Counted from the stretch's first letter, positions 3,856-15,095 are shown. The stretch: 64,000 nt of DNA from an uncultured Gemmatimonadales bacterium (GCA_963793305.1 CAWBZV010000005.1:672001-736000), one strand, 5' to 3'. Numbers and translations: made by a program. Notes: generated by a model not told the origin, from the sequence alone.

Positions 3856-4743
3856 TCACACCCAGACGAGCCCTAGGCCAATGGCGATCCAGATCATCTC
3901 GCGGATGCGACTGACGATCAATGCGTAGACGCCAAGGTCCGGCGGCAGGCCGAGAAGACTGAAGATCAGCGACATACTGCCTTCTTTGGTGCCGAGCTCG
4001 AACGGGATAAAGAACGTCGCGTTCGTGATAAACTGCGAGAACGCGCCGATCATGAAGGCGGTGGGATAGTCAACGTCGAGGCCGAGTGCCCGGGTAATGA
4101 ACAGATATTCGAGCATCGACAAGCACCGGCCCACGAACTCGGCGCCGACCGCCATGAAGATCGTCCCGCGGGAATACGCCGCGATCTGCTCATGGATCGC
4201 ATTTAGCTTGGGCCAGCGGCGGAACAATCGGGTCCGAGGACGAAAGAGCGCCGCCAGCGCGAGCGAGCCGCCGGCAAACACGGCCGCGAGCGCAATCAGC
4301 GAGACCGTGGTAGCCGGCGTCCGAGGCAGGAGCACGAATGCGACGGGAATCGCGGTGACCCAGAAGATGAGCTGTCCGAGCGTATGGATCACACGAAACC
4401 CAACAACGGACGCGGTCGCGCGCGACGGTTCGACCCACTTCGAAGCAGCGGCTATCCGGAACGGCTCGCCACCCAAGGGTACCAGCGGCGTGACGTAATT
4501 GATCGCGAAGCTCGAGACGCTGATCACGTACGCGCGCCCGAACGGGATGGCTCCGTCGAGCAGCGCGCGCCAAGCAATCGTGTTGCACGCATACACGAGC
4601 GCCCAGGCGACCACCGATGGCACGATCGCCCAGCGCGCCGAAACGAGATTGTGAAGGAGCCCGCGCACCCCAGCGTGCGCGATGAGCACGACAAAGAGCA
4701 CCAAGGCGCCGGCAAATACCAGCGCCTGAATTTTTTTGTTCAC
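3856..4743 (-). CDS. Lysylphosphatidylglycerol-synthase TM region / flippase-like protein
   Basis: Multi-TM; NYVTP..LGGEPFR and P.ELGTKEG motifs; GTG 4743 overlaps upstream stop. Confidence 0.85.
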   Translation of the reverse strand: MNKKIQALVFAGALVLFVVLIAHAGVRGLLHNLVSARWAIVPSVVAWALVYACNTIAWRALLDGAIPFGRAYVISVSSFAINYVTPLVPLGGEPFRIAAASKWVEPSRATASVVGFRVIHTLGQLIFWVTAIPVAFVLLPRTPATTVSLIALAAVFAGGSLALAALFRPRTRLFRRWPKLNAIHEQIAAYSRGTIFMAVGAEFVGRCLSMLEYLFITRALGLDVDYPTAFMIGAFSQFITNATFFIPFELGTKEGSMSLIFSLLGLPPDLGVYALIVSRIREMIWIAIGLGLVWV

Positions 4744-5729
4744 ACGCCCACGGCGCAGCCAGAGCGCGCGGATGCATATGCGGCCTCGACGACCGCCGCC
4801 ACGCGCGTGATGTCCGCGAGCGCCTCGTCGGCCTCCCCACGATCCATCGCGTCGGCGAACGCGCCGAACAAGCCGGCGAACCAACTGGCGTACGATCGCT
4901 TATCGAGCTGCGCGGAGTAGTCGACCTCTTGTCGCGGCTCGCCGGCTCGCTCGAGGCTCAACGTGCCGCCATGCCAGTCGATGGTCCCGCGCTCGCCGAT
5001 GATGCGCACGCGGTTCTCGCGATGCCCGGCGGCCCACGTCAACAATATCGTCGCGATCCGGTCGGCAAACCCAACGAGCAGGTGCGCGGTGTCCTCGACC
5101 TCGTACTCCTGATGTCGCAGTCGTCCAGTCCACGCCTGGACCGTCCGCGGTTCGCCGCCGAGATCGAACAATGAGTACAGGAGATGCGTGCCATGATCGA
5201 GCAAGATGCCACCGCTGCTGTCGGCACGAATTGATCTCCAAGGCACCGCACCGCCGTCAGCCTGAAGCCGATACACAGACAGCTCGGCCAGATGCCAATG
5301 TCCAATGGCTCCCTCCCGCACCCATTCGCCAATCTGCCGCCAGACCGGATTGAACCGATACTGGTGGCAGGGGATGACCACGCGACCGGCCTTCCGCGCG
5401 GCCGTAGCCAGCGTATCCGCGTCCGCACGAGTCACTGCCACGGGCTTCTCGCACAACACGTGGAGGCCGTTCTCCAGCGCCCACAACGCTAGCGGCAGGT
5501 GCGATGATGGCGGCGTGCAGATGTCGATGAAATCGAGCGGCCCAGCAGCAAGTAGGGACGGCCGGTCCCTGAAGAGAGGCACGCCATCGATCGGTCCGAC
5601 GTTGGGATCCGAGTCGAGCGCCGCCACGATCTCCATGCGCGGTGCAGCCGCTTTAAACCCCGGAAGGTGCGCCGTGCGGGCGATGCCGCCCAGGCCGATT
5701 ACCGCGCCTCGATATGCTCGGCGTCCCAC
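4740..5729 (-). CDS. Gfo/Idh/MocA family NAD(P)-dependent oxidoreductase
   Basis: IGLGGIA Rossmann motif, HVLCEKP, GGILLDHGTH; start reassigned to GTG 5729. Confidence 0.9.
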   Translation of the reverse strand: MGRRAYRGAVIGLGGIARTAHLPGFKAAAPRMEIVAALDSDPNVGPIDGVPLFRDRPSLLAAGPLDFIDICTPPSSHLPLALWALENGLHVLCEKPVAVTRADADTLATAARKAGRVVIPCHQYRFNPVWRQIGEWVREGAIGHWHLAELSVYRLQADGGAVPWRSIRADSSGGILLDHGTHLLYSLFDLGGEPRTVQAWTGRLRHQEYEVEDTAHLLVGFADRIATILLTWAAGHRENRVRIIGERGTIDWHGGTLSLERAGEPRQEVDYSAQLDKRSYASWFAGLFGAFADAMDRGEADEALADITRVAAVVEAAYASARSGCAVGV

Positions 5730-6529
5730 ACGAACACGAAGAGGACGAGATTGAGCGGCACCACCGTAATCCACAGCATGGCCGCCGGCCACCCCGGCAC
5801 GACAGTCACCAGCAGCAACAGCCACCGCACGTTCTGCCCGAGCCACATGCACCGCCCGAGCAGCGGCGCCGCGTGTCGGACGTACGCCTCGCGCGCCGCG
5901 GCGGACAGCGTCCCTTGCCGGCGCTGCCGCTCCAGCGCGACCGTGGCCGGGAACATGCTCGCCTGTCGCCGCACCCACGAACCATACAGCCAATTTTTGA
6001 GCGAGCCGCCTTGAAGGTCCTCAGGCAGCTCCAGCTCCGAGTCCTGCCCGCTCATGGCCAGAAACGCGTGCCGTATGAAATCGACGGCCGCCGCCTGCCA
6101 CGTATGGCTCAGCAGCGCGGCCAGCGCCAGCGCGATCGCGCCGGCCACGGGCCACCCGAGGAAGACGATGAGCCGCGCCCCGAGATGCGCGTACAGGTTG
6201 ATGAACCGCGCGCTGTCCGACAGCCCATCGAGCATGCGCCCCAGCGGCGTCGACGTCCCGCGCAGCCGCGCCAGTTGCCCGTCGACGCTATCGAAGATGT
6301 CGGAGACGATGAAGAGCACCCATCCGATCGCGTTGATCTCGATGCTCTGATAGAAGAACAGGTGCCCGGCGACGAGACCCGTCGCCAGGCTCCACATCGT
6401 CACCTGATCGGGCGACACCCGCGTCGGCGCCAGCGCTCGAGCGAGTCGAATCCCGATGGGCCGAAAGAAACGGAGGTCGAGCCACTCCTCGACCTCGTCC
6501 CCTTTCGTCGCCAGCGTGCCAGTCGTCAT
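5699..6529 (-). CDS. CDP-alcohol phosphatidyltransferase family protein
   Basis: DIFDSVDGQLARLRGTSTPLGRMLDGLSD matches DxxDGxxAR..G...D...D; ATG 6529 overlaps upstream TGA. Confidence 0.92.
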   Translation of the reverse strand: MTTGTLATKGDEVEEWLDLRFFRPIGIRLARALAPTRVSPDQVTMWSLATGLVAGHLFFYQSIEINAIGWVLFIVSDIFDSVDGQLARLRGTSTPLGRMLDGLSDSARFINLYAHLGARLIVFLGWPVAGAIALALAALLSHTWQAAAVDFIRHAFLAMSGQDSELELPEDLQGGSLKNWLYGSWVRRQASMFPATVALERQRRQGTLSAAAREAYVRHAAPLLGRCMWLGQNVRWLLLLVTVVPGWPAAMLWITVVPLNLVLFVFVWDAEHIEAR

Positions 6530-7860
6530 ACCCGCGCGGCGGCTTCGCCCAACACACCCTTCATGACGGCGAGCGCGCTCATCGCCTGCTCGGTCGTGAT
6601 CACGAGCGGCGGGTTGATCCGCACTTCGGGGTTGTAGATCATCGCCAGCACGCCCCTCGCGAGGAGCGTGTCGAAGATCCATCGCGCGATGTCTTTCGGC
6701 AGAAGCTTGGTCGTGCCCGGATAGACGAGATCCATGCCGATCATGAGCCCGCGCCCGCGGACGTCACTGACGATCGGGATGTCTTTCTCCCACGTTTTCA
6801 TCTCGGCCATCATAGTGGCGCCGAGCACACGACTATGCTCGACGAGCCCCTCTTCGATGATGGTCTCGATGCTCACCCGTGCCGCCGCGGCCGCCAGCGG
6901 ATTCCCGCCGTAGCTCGACGAGCTCCCGCTCGGATTCGCCCAGGGCTTGGCCCGCGCGATCTCCTCGCGCGCGATGATGCCCGTCATCGGGAATCCACCG
7001 CCGAACCCTTTCCCGACCGTCATGATATCGGGCAACACCTCCTCGTGCTCGATCGCGAACATCTTCCCGGTTCGCCCGAACCCGGTCAGCATTTCGTCAG
7101 CAATCAGCACGGCGCCGATGCTATCCGCGAATTTTCTGAGGATCCGCAGGTAGCCGGGGGGCGGCACGATGTTGCCCGCCGTCCCCTGGATCGGCTCGAC
7201 GATGATCGCCGCGACGTCATTCGAGGTCTCGAGCGCGATTTTCTTTTGCAAGAACTCGACGCAATGCCACTCGCACGAGGGAAATGTCTTGTCGAACGCG
7301 CAGCGAGCACAGGAGGCGTACGGCGAGCTGTAGGTACCCGGCATCAGCGGCCCCAGCCCGTGCTTGAAGGAGCCACCGAGCAAGGGAAGGACGCCGGCGG
7401 TCTTGCCGTGGAATCCGCCCCAGAAGCCGACAAACTCGGTCTTCCCAGTCCACGCCTTCGCTAGTCTGAATGCCGACTCGACGGCCTCGGCGCCGCTCGA
7501 ATAGAGCTGTGTCCGATTGAGATCCCCGGGCGTGATGTCGGCGATCAGCTTGACCAGCGCAACCCGATGCTCCGACGTAAAGCTGCCGACATGCACCCGT
7601 GCAACTTGCCGCTGCATGGCCGCGACGAACTTGGGATGCGCATACCCGAGACTGGCCACGCCGACCCCGGCCAACAGATCCGTGTAGCACTTCCCGTCGA
7701 CATCATAAAGGAGCGCGCCTTCGCCGTGGTCGATGCTCAGCTTGCTGAACAGCGCGACGCTCTGCGTACCGGGCGCGAGATAGGCGGACTCGGCGTCAAA
7801 CGCCGCCAAAGACTTTGGACCGGCCGCTGTCTCTGGCCGTGGCTGAACCGTCAACGTCAC
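6526..7860 (-). CDS. Class III PLP-dependent aminotransferase
   Basis: SSGAEAVE, GGFHG, VEPIQG, DEMLTGFGRTG, PDIMTVGKG, SYGGNP. Confidence 0.92.
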   Translation of the reverse strand: MTLTVQPRPETAAGPKSLAAFDAESAYLAPGTQSVALFSKLSIDHGEGALLYDVDGKCYTDLLAGVGVASLGYAHPKFVAAMQRQVARVHVGSFTSEHRVALVKLIADITPGDLNRTQLYSSGAEAVESAFRLAKAWTGKTEFVGFWGGFHGKTAGVLPLLGGSFKHGLGPLMPGTYSSPYASCARCAFDKTFPSCEWHCVEFLQKKIALETSNDVAAIIVEPIQGTAGNIVPPPGYLRILRKFADSIGAVLIADEMLTGFGRTGKMFAIEHEEVLPDIMTVGKGFGGGFPMTGIIAREEIARAKPWANPSGSSSSYGGNPLAAAAARVSIETIIEEGLVEHSRVLGATMMAEMKTWEKDIPIVSDVRGRGLMIGMDLVYPGTTKLLPKDIARWIFDTLLARGVLAMIYNPEVRINPPLVITTEQAMSALAVMKGVLGEAAARV

Positions 7861-8753
7861 TTCGACTGAATCCTCGGTGGAAGCGGGGGGTCCGGGGGGC
7901 GTACTTGGGGTTGCCCCCCGGAGGCGAACCGACCAGTCGAGCGGCGCGCCAGCGCCGAATCGACGAGCCGCGGAGCGGCTTCGTCAGCGTACGCGGCAAT
8001 GTGCCGCGCTGCCTCGTCGCGAAATGGCGCGAAGCTCGGCCAGTCGTTGAGATCAATCAGCACGGGCCGATCTGGTTCCGGAAACGCGACATCACCCCCG
8101 AAAACGCCCAGCCCAAGCCGCTCGGCGGCGGCAAACGCCAAGGTCTTCAACCGCTCGCCGTCCACGTCATCGGCGCCGTAGTACCGGAAGAATCGCCCGT
8201 CGGCGACGCCGTAGAACTTCACGATCGGCCCGGCCACGTGTTCCTGCATCGCCACCCGCGCGATGCCGCGCGCGGCAAACACGCGCAACGCCTCGGGGAT
8301 CTCCTCGCGCCAGAGCGATACGACATCCTCGGCCCGCTCGGCGTGCACGTCGCCGCGCTTGAGCCAGACGCGCCGCCCGTCCGCGCCAAACCCGTCGAGC
8401 TCAGGATCGCCGCTCGTCGGAACGATCGCGGTGCGCGGAATCTGATCGCCGAGGAGCACCACCATCTTGTGCCGGTGACACCCGAGCACGCTCGACGGGC
8501 GATTCATGATCGGCAGCCCCGCGTGCTCGAGCGAAAGCAAACGCTCCGACGCCGCGGGTCCTTGGCACATGTTCAGCACCAGATCGGCGTCGGTCAGCAG
8601 CTCCAGCTCGAAGGTGCTCTCGTTGGCGCGCGTCGCCGACCAGCCGAGGGCTTCCAGCTCGGCCACCGTGGCATCGAGAATGGCGGTGTCGTTCGTCCGA
8701 TGCTGATTCGGCGAGTACGACGCCTGCCGATAGAGCGCGACGAGCCGCTTCAC
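7857..8753 (-). CDS. ATP-grasp fold protein with ITPK1-like motifs
   Basis: VWLKRG, MQEHVAG..KFYGV, LGLGVFGGD, IDLNDWPSF. Confidence 0.75.
   Translation of the reverse strand: MKRLVALYRQASYSPNQHRTNDTAILDATVAELEALGWSATRANESTFELELLTDADLVLNMCQGPAASERLLSLEHAGLPIMNRPSSVLGCHRHKMVVLLGDQIPRTAIVPTSGDPELDGFGADGRRVWLKRGDVHAERAEDVVSLWREEIPEALRVFAARGIARVAMQEHVAGPIVKFYGVADGRFFRYYGADDVDGERLKTLAFAAAERLGLGVFGGDVAFPEPDRPVLIDLNDWPSFAPFRDEAARHIAAYADEAAPRLVDSALARRSTGRFASGGQPQVRPPDPPLPPRIQSK
7885..7985. repeat. REP-like palindromic element inside the 3' end of the ATP-grasp gene
   Basis: Perfect 9-bp inverted repeat CCGGGGGGC (7892-7900) / GCCCCCCGG (7913-7921); hairpins CGGCGC-GCCA-GCGCCG and GCCGC-GGA-GCGGC; 19-mer 7961-7979 identical to 41378-41396. 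Confidence 0.55.
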
Positions 8754-9469
8754 AACGCCAATGCCTCAGTGGCGAGCAGCGCGTCGGCGGCGTCGATATC
8801 GCGCTTGTGGTCGAGATCGACGATCAGCGCCACCTCGGTCGTCGCCACGCGGGCGCCCTCGTCGACGAGCGCCGACAAGAAATAGCGCATGCGGGATCCG
8901 CCGTCGCGCCAGACGCGCAACGCCGTTGTCCGCGCCCGTGGCCCGAACGCGTAGACGCCACCCGTCACGCACGGCGGCATCACCGGCCGGCTGCCGATCC
9001 GAATGGCGTCGCCACCCGGGGCCCGCTCGACCCACAGGGGCCGCTCGTCGTCGACATGCGGCGTCACCGCGAGAACGACGTCAGCGCTGTCAGCGATGTG
9101 ACGAATCGACTCGTCATAGACTCGTTGCCAATCGCGCGCGGGCATGACGGTATCGACCATGCTGCAGAACACCGGACCGGGCGGCATGCGGAGCAGCGCC
9201 TCGGCGAGCGTATGCAGCGACAATGGGGTCTCGCACGCGATCACCCGAGGACGGCCGATCGACAACTCGATGTTGCGCACCGAGGCGATGACCTCGGGGA
9301 AGGTCGACCGGATCATGCAGGTGATGTCCTGACATCCGATCGCACCGAACGTCTCCGCGAGCCGCAGGATCTGCGATCGCCCCGCGACGGACACCGCCGC
9401 CTTCGGCTCGGCCACGCCATCGGCCGCGAGTCGCGAGCCCTCTCCGCCCGCGAGGATCAGGCCGTGCAC
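8750..9469 (-). CDS. NTP-transferase (sugar/polyol-phosphate nucleotidyltransferase)
   Basis: LILAGGEGSRL..PK motif; C-terminal DLD; start reassigned to GTG 9469. Confidence 0.88.
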   Translation of the reverse strand: MHGLILAGGEGSRLAADGVAEPKAAVSVAGRSQILRLAETFGAIGCQDITCMIRSTFPEVIASVRNIELSIGRPRVIACETPLSLHTLAEALLRMPPGPVFCSMVDTVMPARDWQRVYDESIRHIADSADVVLAVTPHVDDERPLWVERAPGGDAIRIGSRPVMPPCVTGGVYAFGPRARTTALRVWRDGGSRMRYFLSALVDEGARVATTEVALIVDLDHKRDIDAADALLATEALAL

Positions 9470-10155
9470 ACGACCTCGGGCAGCTCGGTGAGCGACGCGA
9501 TGCGCGCGGTCGGCGCGCAATCGTTCGGCGTCTCGCGCTCGGGCTCCGTCAGCCAACACGTACAGAGTCCCAGCGTGCGCGCGGGCCGAATGTCGGCGTC
9601 GAGATTGTCGCCGACGATCCACGCCGCGCCGGGCTCGACATCGAGCGCGGCCAACGTCGCGTTGAAGATCTCCGGATCGGGCTTCGACGTGCCGAGCACG
9701 CCCGAGTCCGACACCGTCTGGAAGTAGTTCGTGAGGCCGAGCTCCGCGAGACAGCACGACAAATTGCCGGTGAAATTCGAGACGATGCCGAGTCGATACC
9801 GATCCGCCAGACTGGAGAGCACGCGCGCGTTCCGTTCGGTCGTGCGCACGGCGTCGCGGTGAAAACGATCCGCGACCTCGGTGAAGTCGATAGTGGCGCC
9901 GTCGGGTACCATCTCCTGCAGCAGCTGCGCTTGGGCATCGATCATTGCGCGAAATCCGAGACGCCGAATATCCGGCCGTCTCTCGAGTGCACGATCAGAT
10001 GCTCGGAAGACCGTCTCAAAGTTCCCGGAATCCAGGGAGCCGCCGAGTCCCCTATAGGCCGCGTGGAAGCGAGTGCTCCACCTCAGGCCGTCAGCGTCGA
10101 GCGTTCCGCCAAAGTCGAAGAGTACCGCGCGAACAGGGGTGGCTGATTGCACCAC
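9457..10155 (-). CDS. HAD-superfamily hydrolase
   Basis: FDFGGTLD, VSN, KPDPEIF, VGDNLDAD. Confidence 0.9.
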   Translation of the reverse strand: MVQSATPVRAVLFDFGGTLDADGLRWSTRFHAAYRGLGGSLDSGNFETVFRASDRALERRPDIRRLGFRAMIDAQAQLLQEMVPDGATIDFTEVADRFHRDAVRTTERNARVLSSLADRYRLGIVSNFTGNLSCCLAELGLTNYFQTVSDSGVLGTSKPDPEIFNATLAALDVEPGAAWIVGDNLDADIRPARTLGLCTCWLTEPERETPNDCAPTARIASLTELPEVVCTA

Positions 10156-10195: not shown

Positions 10196-11923
<1,728 letters not shown>

Positions 11924-13571: not shown

Positions 13572-14192
13572 ATGGTCTCTATCGCCGAACGCGTGAAAGG
13601 CATCCTGCTGCACCCGCGCGGCACGTGGGCCACGATCGACACAGAACAGACGACGACCCGGGCGCTGTACCTCCATTACATCGCGCCACTCGCCGGACTT
13701 TCGGCCCTTGCACGGCTAATCGGCGTGGCGTTCGTCGGGTTCCCGGTCATCGCCCGCCCACCGTTCTGGCAGGTGCTCGTCTGGGCCGCGCTCTACTTCC
13801 TGTTCGAGCTCCTCGCGGTCAACGTCATCGCGTTCGTCATAGACTGGCTTGGCCCGAGACTGGGGTGTCCCGAGTGCGAGGGGATACCGCGCCACATTCA
13901 AGCGCTGAAGGTCGCCACCTATGCCCGCACGCCGCTGTGGATCGCCGGACTCGCCCTGATCGTTCCCACGACCGAGGTCGTCGCCATCGCGATCGGCGCT
14001 CTCTACTCCGTCTACTTGCTCTGTCTCGGCCTTCCGGAGTTAATGAAGGCACCGAAGCATCGGGTCCCCGTATACGCAATGGTAACGGTCGTTGCGGCCG
14101 CCGGGGTCTACGGGCTCCTCCGGATACTCGTGAACACGATTCTTGCGATGGCGTTTGGGTTCGCCGTCGACGCTCGGGACTACACGTCATGA
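13572..14192 (+). CDS. Yip1-family membrane protein
   Basis: ERVKGILLHP..W..I, ALKVATYARTP.W, YLLCLGLPELMKAP. Confidence 0.85.
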   Translation: MVSIAERVKGILLHPRGTWATIDTEQTTTRALYLHYIAPLAGLSALARLIGVAFVGFPVIARPPFWQVLVWAALYFLFELLAVNVIAFVIDWLGPRLGCPECEGIPRHIQALKVATYARTPLWIAGLALIVPTTEVVAIAIGALYSVYLLCLGLPELMKAPKHRVPVYAMVTVVAAAGVYGLLRILVNTILAMAFGFAVDARDYTS

Positions 14193-15095
14193 ATACAAGA
14201 CCGCTCGGTAACTCCGATCTTCATATCACGCCGCTCGGCTTCGGCGCCTGGGCGGTCGGTGGCGCCTGGCAATTCGGTTGGGGACAGCAAGACGATAACG
14301 ACTCCATCAGCGCGATAGAGCGTGCACTGGATCTCGGCATCAACTGGATCGACACGGCGGCCGTATATGGCCTCGGCCACTCCGAGGAAGTCGTCGCGCG
14401 CGCGCTCGTGGGTCGCGCGAAGCGTCCGTACGTGTTCACGAAGTGCGGGCTCGTGTGGGATGCCCAGGGCAACACCACACGGTCCCTCGCATCAGTGCGG
14501 AGCGAGCTCGAATGCCAGTCTCCGTCGTCTCAAAACGGACGTCATCGATCTCTATCAGGTGCACTGGCCTCCGGCGAACCTGGCCGAGCTCGAGCCAGGC
14601 TTGGAAGCACTCGTCGAAGCGCAACGCCAAGGAAAAATCCGGCACATTGGCGTGTCGAACTTCAATGTGCCGCTCATGGAACGCGCCCGTCGCGTCGCGC
14701 CCATTGTGTCTTTGCAACCGCCTTACTCGATCATTCGTCGCGATATCGAGTCGGAGATTCTGCCGTACTGTCAACGAGAGCACATCGGCGTGATCGTGTA
14801 CTCGCCGATGGCGTCAGGGCTCTTGTCGGGTGCGATGACGCGCGAGCGTATTGCGAACCTGCCGGCCGATGACTGGCGGCGGCGGTCGTCGGCGTTCAAC
14901 GAGCCCAATCTTTCGCGCAACCTCGCGATCGTCGAGGAGCTCCGCGAGCTCGGTTCGCCGGGGGAAGTGGCCATCGCCTGGACACTGAAAAATCCGGCGG
15001 TCACGGCGGCGATCGTTGGCGCGCGGAACGCCGAGCAAGTCGACGGCTGGATCGGCGCGGCCGCGCTCGATCTTTCAAACGTCGCGGTCGTATGA
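14189..15095 (+). CDS. Aldo/keto reductase (apparent +1 frameshift near 14511-14513)
   Basis: LGFGAW, GINWIDTAAVYG in the first frame; SLRRLKTDVIDLYQVHWP, IGVSNF, YSPMASG in the second. Confidence 0.9.

Follow-up and report, generated by a model that had tools for sequence, protein, structure and literature searches.

A seven-gene operon for a putative amino-inositol phospholipid head group in an uncultured Gemmatimonadales bacterium

A seven-gene operon at positions 3856 to 10155 of a DNA stretch of 64,000 nucleotides from an uncultured Gemmatimonadales bacterium (GCA_963793305.1 CAWBZV010000005.1:672001-736000), hereafter called the window, probably equips a membrane lipid with an amino-inositol (inosamine) phosphate head group by a Kennedy-type route. 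A preliminary description of this DNA had suggested that an aminated cyclitol is activated with cytidine diphosphate (CDP), attached to a lipid and flipped, a suggestion supported at the sequence level by orthology, by the joint gain and loss of genes and by linkage to ino1. In the proposed pathway, ino1, located elsewhere in the genome, would provide inositol-3-phosphate, which the HAD hydrolase would convert into inositol. Then, the Gfo/Idh/MocA dehydrogenase would turn inositol into inosose, the class III aminotransferase inosose into inosamine, and the ATP-grasp enzyme inosamine into inosamine phosphate. The nucleoside triphosphate (NTP)-transferase would form CDP-inosamine from the latter, the CDP-alcohol transferase would move inosamine-phosphate from CDP-inosamine onto a lipid hydroxyl, and the LPG-synthase-TM protein would flip the finished lipid. 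We infer every step from what was directly seen, i.e., the gene content, the orthology, the joint gain and loss, the linkage both with ino1 and with putative ceramide genes, and the charge-shifting residues. Even given that product class, this exact order of steps is put forward tentatively. In a literature search with thin coverage of subscription journals, neither a description of an amino-inositol or inosamine lipid nor a Gemmatimonadota lipid paper was found.

The open reading frames (ORFs) spanning 10155 to 3856 confirm the order described earlier, with all seven genes on the minus strand: HAD, NTP-transferase, ATP-grasp, aminotransferase, CDP-alcohol transferase, dehydrogenase and LPG-synthase-TM. 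Every junction overlaps, as had been claimed, four of them as 4-bp RTGA (8750-8753, 7857-7860, 6526-6529 and 4740-4743) and the remaining two by 13 bp (HAD/NTP-transferase) and 31 bp (CDP-alcohol transferase/dehydrogenase). The likely starts are, in gene order, 10155, 9469, 8753, 7860, 6529, 5729 and 4743; long upstream-extended ORFs of the NTP-transferase, CDP-alcohol transferase, dehydrogenase and LPG-synthase-TM genes were rejected on the later starts of their homologues. The domain call of each gene also held, six proteins being above the Pfam gathering score and the ATP-grasp enzyme being recognized by a structure model and a fold search. The 80 best-matching genome loci served as the basis for conservation counts. 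All seven genes occur in the same order in 57 of them and in order up to a contig end that cuts them in 20, whereas two are rearranged with ino1 added and one (L047) holds a lone ATP-grasp gene. The closest relatives of the operon are found in Gemmatimonadaceae genomes. Its distribution within Gemmatimonadota is patchy because a strong match to the ATP-grasp marker (E < 1e-70) was found in 22 of 151 genomes of an even sample of the phylum, all belonging to the taxonomic order of the window, and in only two of the 31 other genomes of the window's family. No relative was found among viral contigs, and plasmid matches to the aminotransferase were only distant (identity at most 40%).

The core cluster and the amination pair

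By sequence comparison, the HAD, NTP-transferase, ATP-grasp, CDP-alcohol transferase and flippase-like genes make up the core of the 'alternative' cluster of Bacteroidales, because orthologues of these five were found in annotated records of Bacteroides finegoldii and Prevotella nigrescens. The NTP-transferase, HAD and CDP-alcohol transferase set that the preliminary description had mentioned for Bacteroidota inositol-lipid clusters does exist in Heaver et al. 2022 (PMC9246714), as an unconfirmed cluster beside ino1, and it is orthologous by profile matches. Profiles built here gave 144-275 bits with the core genes of B. finegoldii and P. nigrescens, and the 'hypothetical protein' of both clusters is the orthologue of the ATP-grasp enzyme; the words 'ATP-grasp' and 'aminotransferase' are absent from the main text of that paper. 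The same source reports that Bacteroides vulgatus and Prevotella veroralis, which are devoid of the BT-type genes, make phosphatidylinositol (PI)-dihydroceramide; it proposes the HAD protein as the PI-dihydroceramide synthase while stating that the cluster functions are unconfirmed, and it gives exceptions to the vicinity of ino1, e.g., P. copri (PMC9246714). This vicinity is not found for the operon of the window. The system represents an expanded version of the proposed, unproven CDP-inositol lipid pathway of gut Bacteroidales.

The other two genes, encoding the dehydrogenase and the class III aminotransferase, form an add-on pair to this core. Of 401 genomes sampled evenly across the Bacteroidota phylum, 23 gave a strong match, and among the first 20 loci, which come from 19 of these 23, 14 hold both genes, six hold neither and none holds a single one. 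Further genome loci agree. Both cluster types are present in one Bacteroidota genome (L085 and L090). A distant query yielded 80 held-out metagenome loci. Where these extend 3.5 kb or more downstream, 21 hold both genes, 15 neither and none a single one, single-gene cases being confined to contig ends. In a tree of the NTP-transferase, CDP-alcohol transferase and HAD proteins, the state of the pair changes five times. The preliminary description had made its proposal depend on the conservation of these two genes with the core; indeed, the pair is kept across phyla and is gained and lost jointly. Other lineages keep the block HAD, NTP-transferase, ATP-grasp, aminotransferase and dehydrogenase with a different CDP-alcohol transferase nearby, and the cluster names of some family members indicate Deltaproteobacteria and Elusimicrobia. 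In L191 (9847-12566), both cluster types apparently stand side by side, with PgpA-, GtrA-, PIP-synthase- and AUR1-like genes (labels read from translations) inserted between the ATP-grasp and transferase genes of the 'alternative' one.

The operon was said to be devoid of ino1, which proved correct, and a genome search found a single copy (C5:972096-973403), about 290 kb away and adjoining a PIP-synthase-like gene. Elsewhere, ino1 lies within 19 of the 20 Bacteroidota-phylum loci, including all 14 that have the pair, as well as in four of four further pair-bearing loci and in five metagenome loci with the pair. Ignavibacteria-type genomes carry it in one gene run with the orthologous pair, which comes closest to a proof of the substrate; all complete Ignavibacteria-type loci that were inspected contain the orthologous aminotransferase (56-58% identical) and dehydrogenase together with ino1. 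In the Gemmatimonadota sample, ino1 was found in 142 of 151 genomes; as it is near-universal in this sample, inositol supply is no obstacle, but this is no proof.

Residue co-variation and the lipid acceptor

If the pair aminates the head group, adaptation of the downstream enzymes is to be expected. A discovery set of 45 loci revealed a single transferase column that is split perfectly by the pair, residue 77 being Asp or Glu in 34 of 34 loci with it and Asn in 11 of 11 without it. In the window, this residue is Asp77 (codon 6299-6301), three residues, i.e., one helical turn, before the first Asp of the motif. Across all genome loci, Asp or Glu is found in 107 of 107 with both genes and Asn or Gln in 15 of 15 with neither, Gln standing in one pair-less lineage (L135) and Asn in the others. 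In the held-out metagenome loci with the same transferase subfamily, those with the aminotransferase have 12 Asp/Glu, two Ser and no Asn (n = 14), whereas those without it have 23 Asn and four Asp (n = 27 genes). For pooled full-length proteins, Asp or Glu occupies the position in 114 of the 116 loci that carry the pair and in three of the 36 that lack it. Two other proteins also shift: flippase Glu249 (codon 3997-3999) is Asp or Glu in 97 of 102 pair-bearing loci and in one of eight pair-less ones, and ATP-grasp Gln64 (codon 8562-8564) is Gln in 117 of 117 pair-bearing loci, whereas 33 of 38 pair-less loci have Arg. The charge shifts in transferase, ATP-grasp enzyme and flippase go towards a cation-suited pocket and would fit a cationic head group. 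In yeast CPT1, residue Ala97 of the second transmembrane helix, which adjoins the first motif Asp, helps to select the head group, and it sits on the same helix as Asp77 (PMC11696302).

Provided that the product is an amino-inositol-phosphate lipid, we lean towards ceramide as its acceptor, which is more likely than diacylglycerol. A putative Spt-bCerS-CerR triad is located just left of the window (C5:667147-670572; L103), directed towards the operon and 5.3 kb from its end. It comprises an Spt-like gene, a GNAT gene and an NAD-epimerase-like gene, bCerS enzymes being GNAT proteins. This ceramide gene set has been described (PMC11087976, PMC11334938). Among the first 100 loci, 18 have at least one triad gene in the flanks that were retrieved and 16 have all three, in a tandem arrangement upstream or a convergent one downstream. 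Triad and cluster form one same-strand run in L005, L006 and L015, and the triad heads a same-strand run with the core in the Bacteroidota loci L111, which includes ino1, and L112; it adjoins the cluster in two phyla. All 22 Gemmatimonadota genomes positive for the operon marker have a bCerS-like gene, as do all 26 carriers reached through other searches and 71 of the 72 genomes in the main carrier family. Among the 31 other genomes of the window's family, only five have it; the two operon carriers are among these five, with the gene adjacent. MlaE/F/D lipid-transport genes lie inside many Ignavibacteria-type clusters. The word 'inositol' is absent from the main text of the Black Sea sphingolipid paper.

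A bolder joint claim, doubtful as a whole, is that bacteria from several phyla in soil and groundwater produce an inosamine-phosphoryl-ceramide, i.e., a zwitterionic counterpart of inositol phosphorylceramide with amino-inositol in place of inositol, by a Kennedy-type route with an ITPK1-like ATP-grasp kinase; that one acidic transferase residue, together with the kinase and flippase shifts, switches between anionic inositol and zwitterionic amino-inositol; and that the same overlooked kinase supplies a step missing so far from the PI-ceramide pathway of gut Bacteroidales.

Encoded enzymes and alternative products

The ATP-grasp enzyme (298 aa; 7857..8753, minus strand), a core gene of the cluster known by its predicted fold, is proposed as an ITPK1-type inosamine/inositol kinase and is likely to be a kinase. 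It has no Pfam match at E <= 0.01 and no NCBIfam match at E <= 0.001, and its structure model reaches a predicted local distance difference test score of 89. On the same amino-inositol lipid scaffold, it could instead be a RimK/LysX-like amide ligase acylating the amine or some other group, oxidation and amination taking place on inositol-3-phosphate or CDP-inositol and the head group being an N-acyl or aminoacyl inosamine. Amide ligases are indeed its closest fold, which tells against a kinase, although by itself the fold cannot distinguish the two: Ddl, LysX/ArgX and RimK are the best matches (Ddl/LysX/RimK with Z about 20, root-mean-square deviation (rmsd) about 3 and about 244 aligned residues), and the top 50 of the fold search are ligases and synapsins (Z 18-20), ITPK structures not being among them. 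The best PDB sequence match of its profile is AtITPK4 (E 2.5e-5), whereas a wider profile of 110 diverse members ties PsnB (1.7e-7) with AtITPK4 (2.7e-7), followed by RimK and then by three more ITPKs, so that PsnB and RimK equal the ITPKs. Its protein atlas neighbours are RimK and ITPK mixed, and the gathering score of the ITPK1 family PF05770 is not reached (six of 31 members match, best E 0.04). The nucleotide-sugar dehydrogenase 3q2i, among the top dehydrogenase matches, also suits a reaction on CDP-inositol; we take it to be WlbA, partnered with an aminotransferase on a nucleotide sugar. However, Lys179 and Asp234-x-Asn236 agree with AtITPK4 (7pup) where RimK and PsnB have Arg and Glu, and the family columns hold K179 in 115 of 115, D234 in 113 of 115 and N236 in 114 of 115. 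Moreover, the enzyme is present in clusters with the dehydrogenase/aminotransferase pair and in all those without it, where no amine is made; therefore, it does not depend on an amine, and it is part of the core cluster and not of the amination step. The acidic residues of transferase and flippase also suit a free amine better than an amide, and the amide ligase is an unlikely alternative to a kinase acting on inosamine.

Among the 150 representatives listed, the ATP-grasp enzyme is fused to the NTP-transferase in 10 (one partial), and one representative each shows a fusion to HAD plus NTP-transferase, to HAD and to a CDP-alcohol transferase; the fusions with NTP-transferase and HAD domains also speak for a kinase. 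Its C-terminal extension in the window (7861-7988), of about 30 residues and low model confidence, is missing from relatives, and contigs of three RNA runs have 33 other bases in place of this stretch. Tandem ATP-grasp genes occur in L085, L087, L091 and L093, in clusters with the amination pair; where read, position 64 is Arg in one copy and Gln in the other, which suggests, from these residues, one enzyme each for inositol and inosamine.

The CDP-alcohol phosphotransferase (276 aa; 5699..6529, minus strand; PF01066), proposed as a CDP-inosamine:lipid transferase, has the complete DxxDGxxAR...GxxxDxxxD motif and the fold of its class. This fold is nearest to AF2299 (Z 18.6, rmsd 3.5, 207 aligned), then to IPCT/DIPPS (Z 16.7, rmsd 3.1, 187 aligned), PIP synthase (Z 15.0) and CHPT1 (Z 11.5), and the score against the IPCT/DIPPS family NF041135 is 32 bits (cut-off 580, not reached). 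As modelled, the AF2299/DIPPS-like fold fits a soluble CDP donor, yet it leaves room for a soluble product. The latter would be a phosphodiester, an aminated di-myo-inositol phosphate analogue made as a compatible solute by a split IPCT/DIPPS pair, in keeping with the AF2299/DIPPS-like transferases of some other-lineage clusters. Such a solute is improbable, given that the operon holds a flippase-like gene with its own charge shift, that Mla and putative ceramide genes share gene runs with the cluster, and that organisms with the core cluster make PI-dihydroceramide (PMC9246714). The flippase candidate (295 aa; 3856..4743, minus strand; PF03706) is an LPG_synthase_TM (MprF/AglD-like) membrane protein, under the cut-offs of the TIGR00374 and HpnL models. 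Compared with L002, the closest relative, the junction between the transferase and dehydrogenase genes (5699-5729) is shortened by about 100 bp, apparently via a short repeat, and the final codons of one gene are the first codons of the next; L003 is likewise short.

The Gfo/Idh/MocA dehydrogenase (329 aa; 4740..5729, minus strand; PF01408/PF22725), a proposed inositol dehydrogenase, retains the EKP and D-x3-H motifs in alignment and scores 76.5 bits with the IolG model TIGR04380, whose cut-off of 355 is not reached. The NTP-transferase (239 aa; 8750..9469, minus strand; PF12804) is a proposed IPCT-like cyclitol-phosphate cytidylyltransferase. Its profile aligns with the IPCT entries 2xme, 4jd0 and 4mnd over nearly all 237 positions, and sugar-1-phosphate nucleotidyltransferases score equal or higher over at most 185 positions; it is the orthologue of the 'NDP-sugar synthase' adjoining ino1 in B. 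finegoldii and has no match to NF041135. Both enzymes are equally close to sugar and inositol enzymes, ino1 is missing from the Gemmatimonadota operon and from several other-lineage loci, and the genome already has a separate pair of ino1 and PIP synthase. The Gemmatimonadota substrate could then be another polyol or a sugar, e.g., for an amino-pentanetetrol or amino-hexose phosphate head group. Head groups of these types are found in Aquificae and methanogens. This is also improbable, as it sits poorly with the orthologous aminotransferase and dehydrogenase accompanying ino1 in the complete Ignavibacteria-type loci.

The class III aminotransferase (444 aa; 6526..7860, minus strand; PF00202), dependent on pyridoxal 5'-phosphate (PLP) and proposed to act on inosose, scores 310 bits with PF00202 (cut-off 30.5). 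It is under every NCBIfam cut-off shown, including the gamma-aminobutyrate (GABA) and acetylornithine equivalogs, and lands only in generic class III clusters of the protein atlas. The sequence FHGKT/YHGKT is present in 139 of 139 family members. In a family alignment including PuuE and GabT, Lys284, Asp255 and Arg414, which we take to be PLP and amino-donor residues, are invariant, and the presumed substrate-carboxylate Arg and switch Glu of GABA aminotransferase are Lys153 and Thr227. A pair that alters the ring and leaves no amine (epimerization to scyllo- or chiro-inositol, or PLP-dependent elimination, giving a stereoisomeric or deoxy PI-type lipid) would agree with Thr227 and with the racemases and ammonia-lyases that share the class III fold and score among the top matches, but it is very improbable in view of the three invariant residues, Arg414 for the amino donor among them, and of charge shifts in three core proteins that suit an amine.

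The HAD-IA hydrolase (232 aa; 9457..10155, minus strand; PF00702/PF13419), a proposed inositol-3-phosphate phosphatase, retains the nucleophile Asp14, Ser126, Lys158 and Gly182-Asp183. In motif I, the usual second Asp is replaced by Gly16, and a conserved Asp20 is close by (D14 and G16 in 167 and D20 in 163 of 168 members); Asp20 may stand in for the general acid. This motif (10096-10116) reads D-x-G-G-T-x-D in nearly all 168 members. The HAD protein is fused to NTP-transferase and ATP-grasp in P0158 and to ATP-grasp in P0259.

Several points weigh against an inosamine lipid. The HAD protein is devoid of the usual general-acid Asp, and PDB and NCBIfam searches place the dehydrogenase, aminotransferase, NTP-transferase and HAD in no substrate-specific family. 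Only three independent pairs of lineages are well supported (starred branches); all are concordant, with a p value of 0.25 that cannot reach 0.05. Close Gemmatimonadales kin dominate the residue counts, and some genomes are counted twice. Residue 77 is Asp without the pair in four loci (L171, L183, L189 and L213; in L171, no pair gene lies within 18.8 kb) and Ser in two loci with it. ATP-grasp Gln without the pair occurs in L113 and L135-L138, exceptions on which the Gln/Arg site was rejected as a strict rule. The charge filter is passed by 13 of 1304 columns, several in the opposite direction and apparently tracking the gut Bacteroidales clade, and it detects no charge shift in the NTP-transferase and HAD proteins. 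As to ceramide, the Spt-like protein scores 532 bits against a cut-off of 640 for NF047600, its best model, above BioF/Kbl; the bCerS and CerR labels come from gene context and from GNAT and NAD-epimerase matches. Besides, co-occurrence of ino1 and the bCerS-like gene at the genome level says little in Gemmatimonadota because of their frequency in the phylum sample and the main carrier family, respectively. The clusters of L171, L183, L189 and L213 are Bacteroidales-like, and L171 has an inserted Ser/Thr kinase and RCC1-like repeat gene.

Genomic surroundings and known systems

A same-strand gene for a Ser/Thr protein kinase with a tetratricopeptide repeat-like tail (10196-11923, minus strand) terminates 41 bp ahead of the HAD start; it was rejected as a member of the system, its cluster occurring in nine of the 80 best loci (the ORF filter missed some genes). 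On the 3' side of many Gemmatimonadales operons are found a family 4 glycosyltransferase (15 of 80), a second CDP-alcohol transferase (14 of 80), MlaE (14 of 80) and a polysaccharide deacetylase (eight of 80), e.g., L052:16810-18575, L036:15471-16121 and L078:9011-9811; these genes may decorate or move the lipid further. A sigma-70 promoter search at the operon found none, and terminators were no more than at chance level. Fifteen soil metatranscriptomes contain small shares of operon-related sequence, and contigs of relatives from four RNA runs span parts of all seven genes; they are not counted as expression evidence because contigs cannot show transcription. Two further plus-strand genes, labelled from their translations, are a multicopper-oxidase-like gene (295-2271), apparently split by a frameshift near 1937-2070 with its C-terminal copper motifs in another frame, and an aldo/keto-reductase-like gene (14190-15095), apparently in two frames near 14440.

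If true, the proposal would mean that uncultured lineages from soil and groundwater contain membrane lipids of a new class, and it would connect the aminocyclitol chemistry of antibiotics with the synthesis of membrane lipids. The lipid would have a mass signature 0.984 Da under PI-ceramide or PI, a candidate biomarker minable in existing lipidomes, with computed head-group ions at m/z 258.038/240.028 in place of 259.022/241.012. The question of the Bacteroidales pathway becomes testable, as its conserved 'hypothetical' cluster gene is an ATP-grasp enzyme, probably a kinase, and residue 77 offers a one-site handle on head-group selection in CDP-alcohol transferases.

The front end of streptidine synthesis (StsC) uses the same enzyme types from inositol phosphate to inosamine in an antibiotic pathway. 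For the aminocyclitol of hygromycin A, the proposed route comprises the synthase Hyg18, the phosphatase Hyg25, the assayed PF01408 dehydrogenase Hyg17 and the aminotransferase Hyg8 (PMC10949010). By this pathway description, its phosphatase, dehydrogenase and aminotransferase lead to inosamine as proposed here; its destination is an antibiotic, whereas the genes of the operon are coupled to a CDP-activation step, a transferase in the membrane and a putative flippase. ITPK1 acts on inositol monophosphates, and Asgard archaeal ITPK1 genes flank ino1 (PMC6900528). The ITPK1 family (PF05770; PMC6900528, PMC7614388) shares the ATP-grasp fold and the KFY and D-x-N-x-P-S-F motifs with the operon enzyme, whereas the latter is bacterial, stands in lipid clusters and is far under the Pfam cut-off. 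By family scores, the operon enzymes are not IPCT/DIPPS, IolG or ITPK1, but they probably work like them.

In the Rhodothermus marinus IPCT/BEPIS route (Jorge et al., cited in PMC4587543), it is likewise the head group rather than the lipid that is CDP-activated, by an operon of ino1, IPCT and a CDP-alcohol transferase for dialkylether PI; as described there, it has no amination or kinase step, and its acceptor is a dialkyl glycerol ether. The logic of kinase, cytidylyltransferase and CDP-alcohol phosphotransferase is that of the Kennedy pathway (PMC11696302), with a cyclitol head group here and a transferase nearer to AF2299/DIPPS than to CHPT1. The closest counterpart is the Bacteroidales 'alternative' cluster of Bacteroides (Phocaeicola) vulgatus and Prevotella, with its NTP-transferase, CDP-alcohol transferase, HAD and LPG-synthase-like genes and the same CDP-inositol logic, to which the operon adds the dehydrogenase and the class III aminotransferase, with ino1 elsewhere in the genome and Asp instead of Asn at residue 77.

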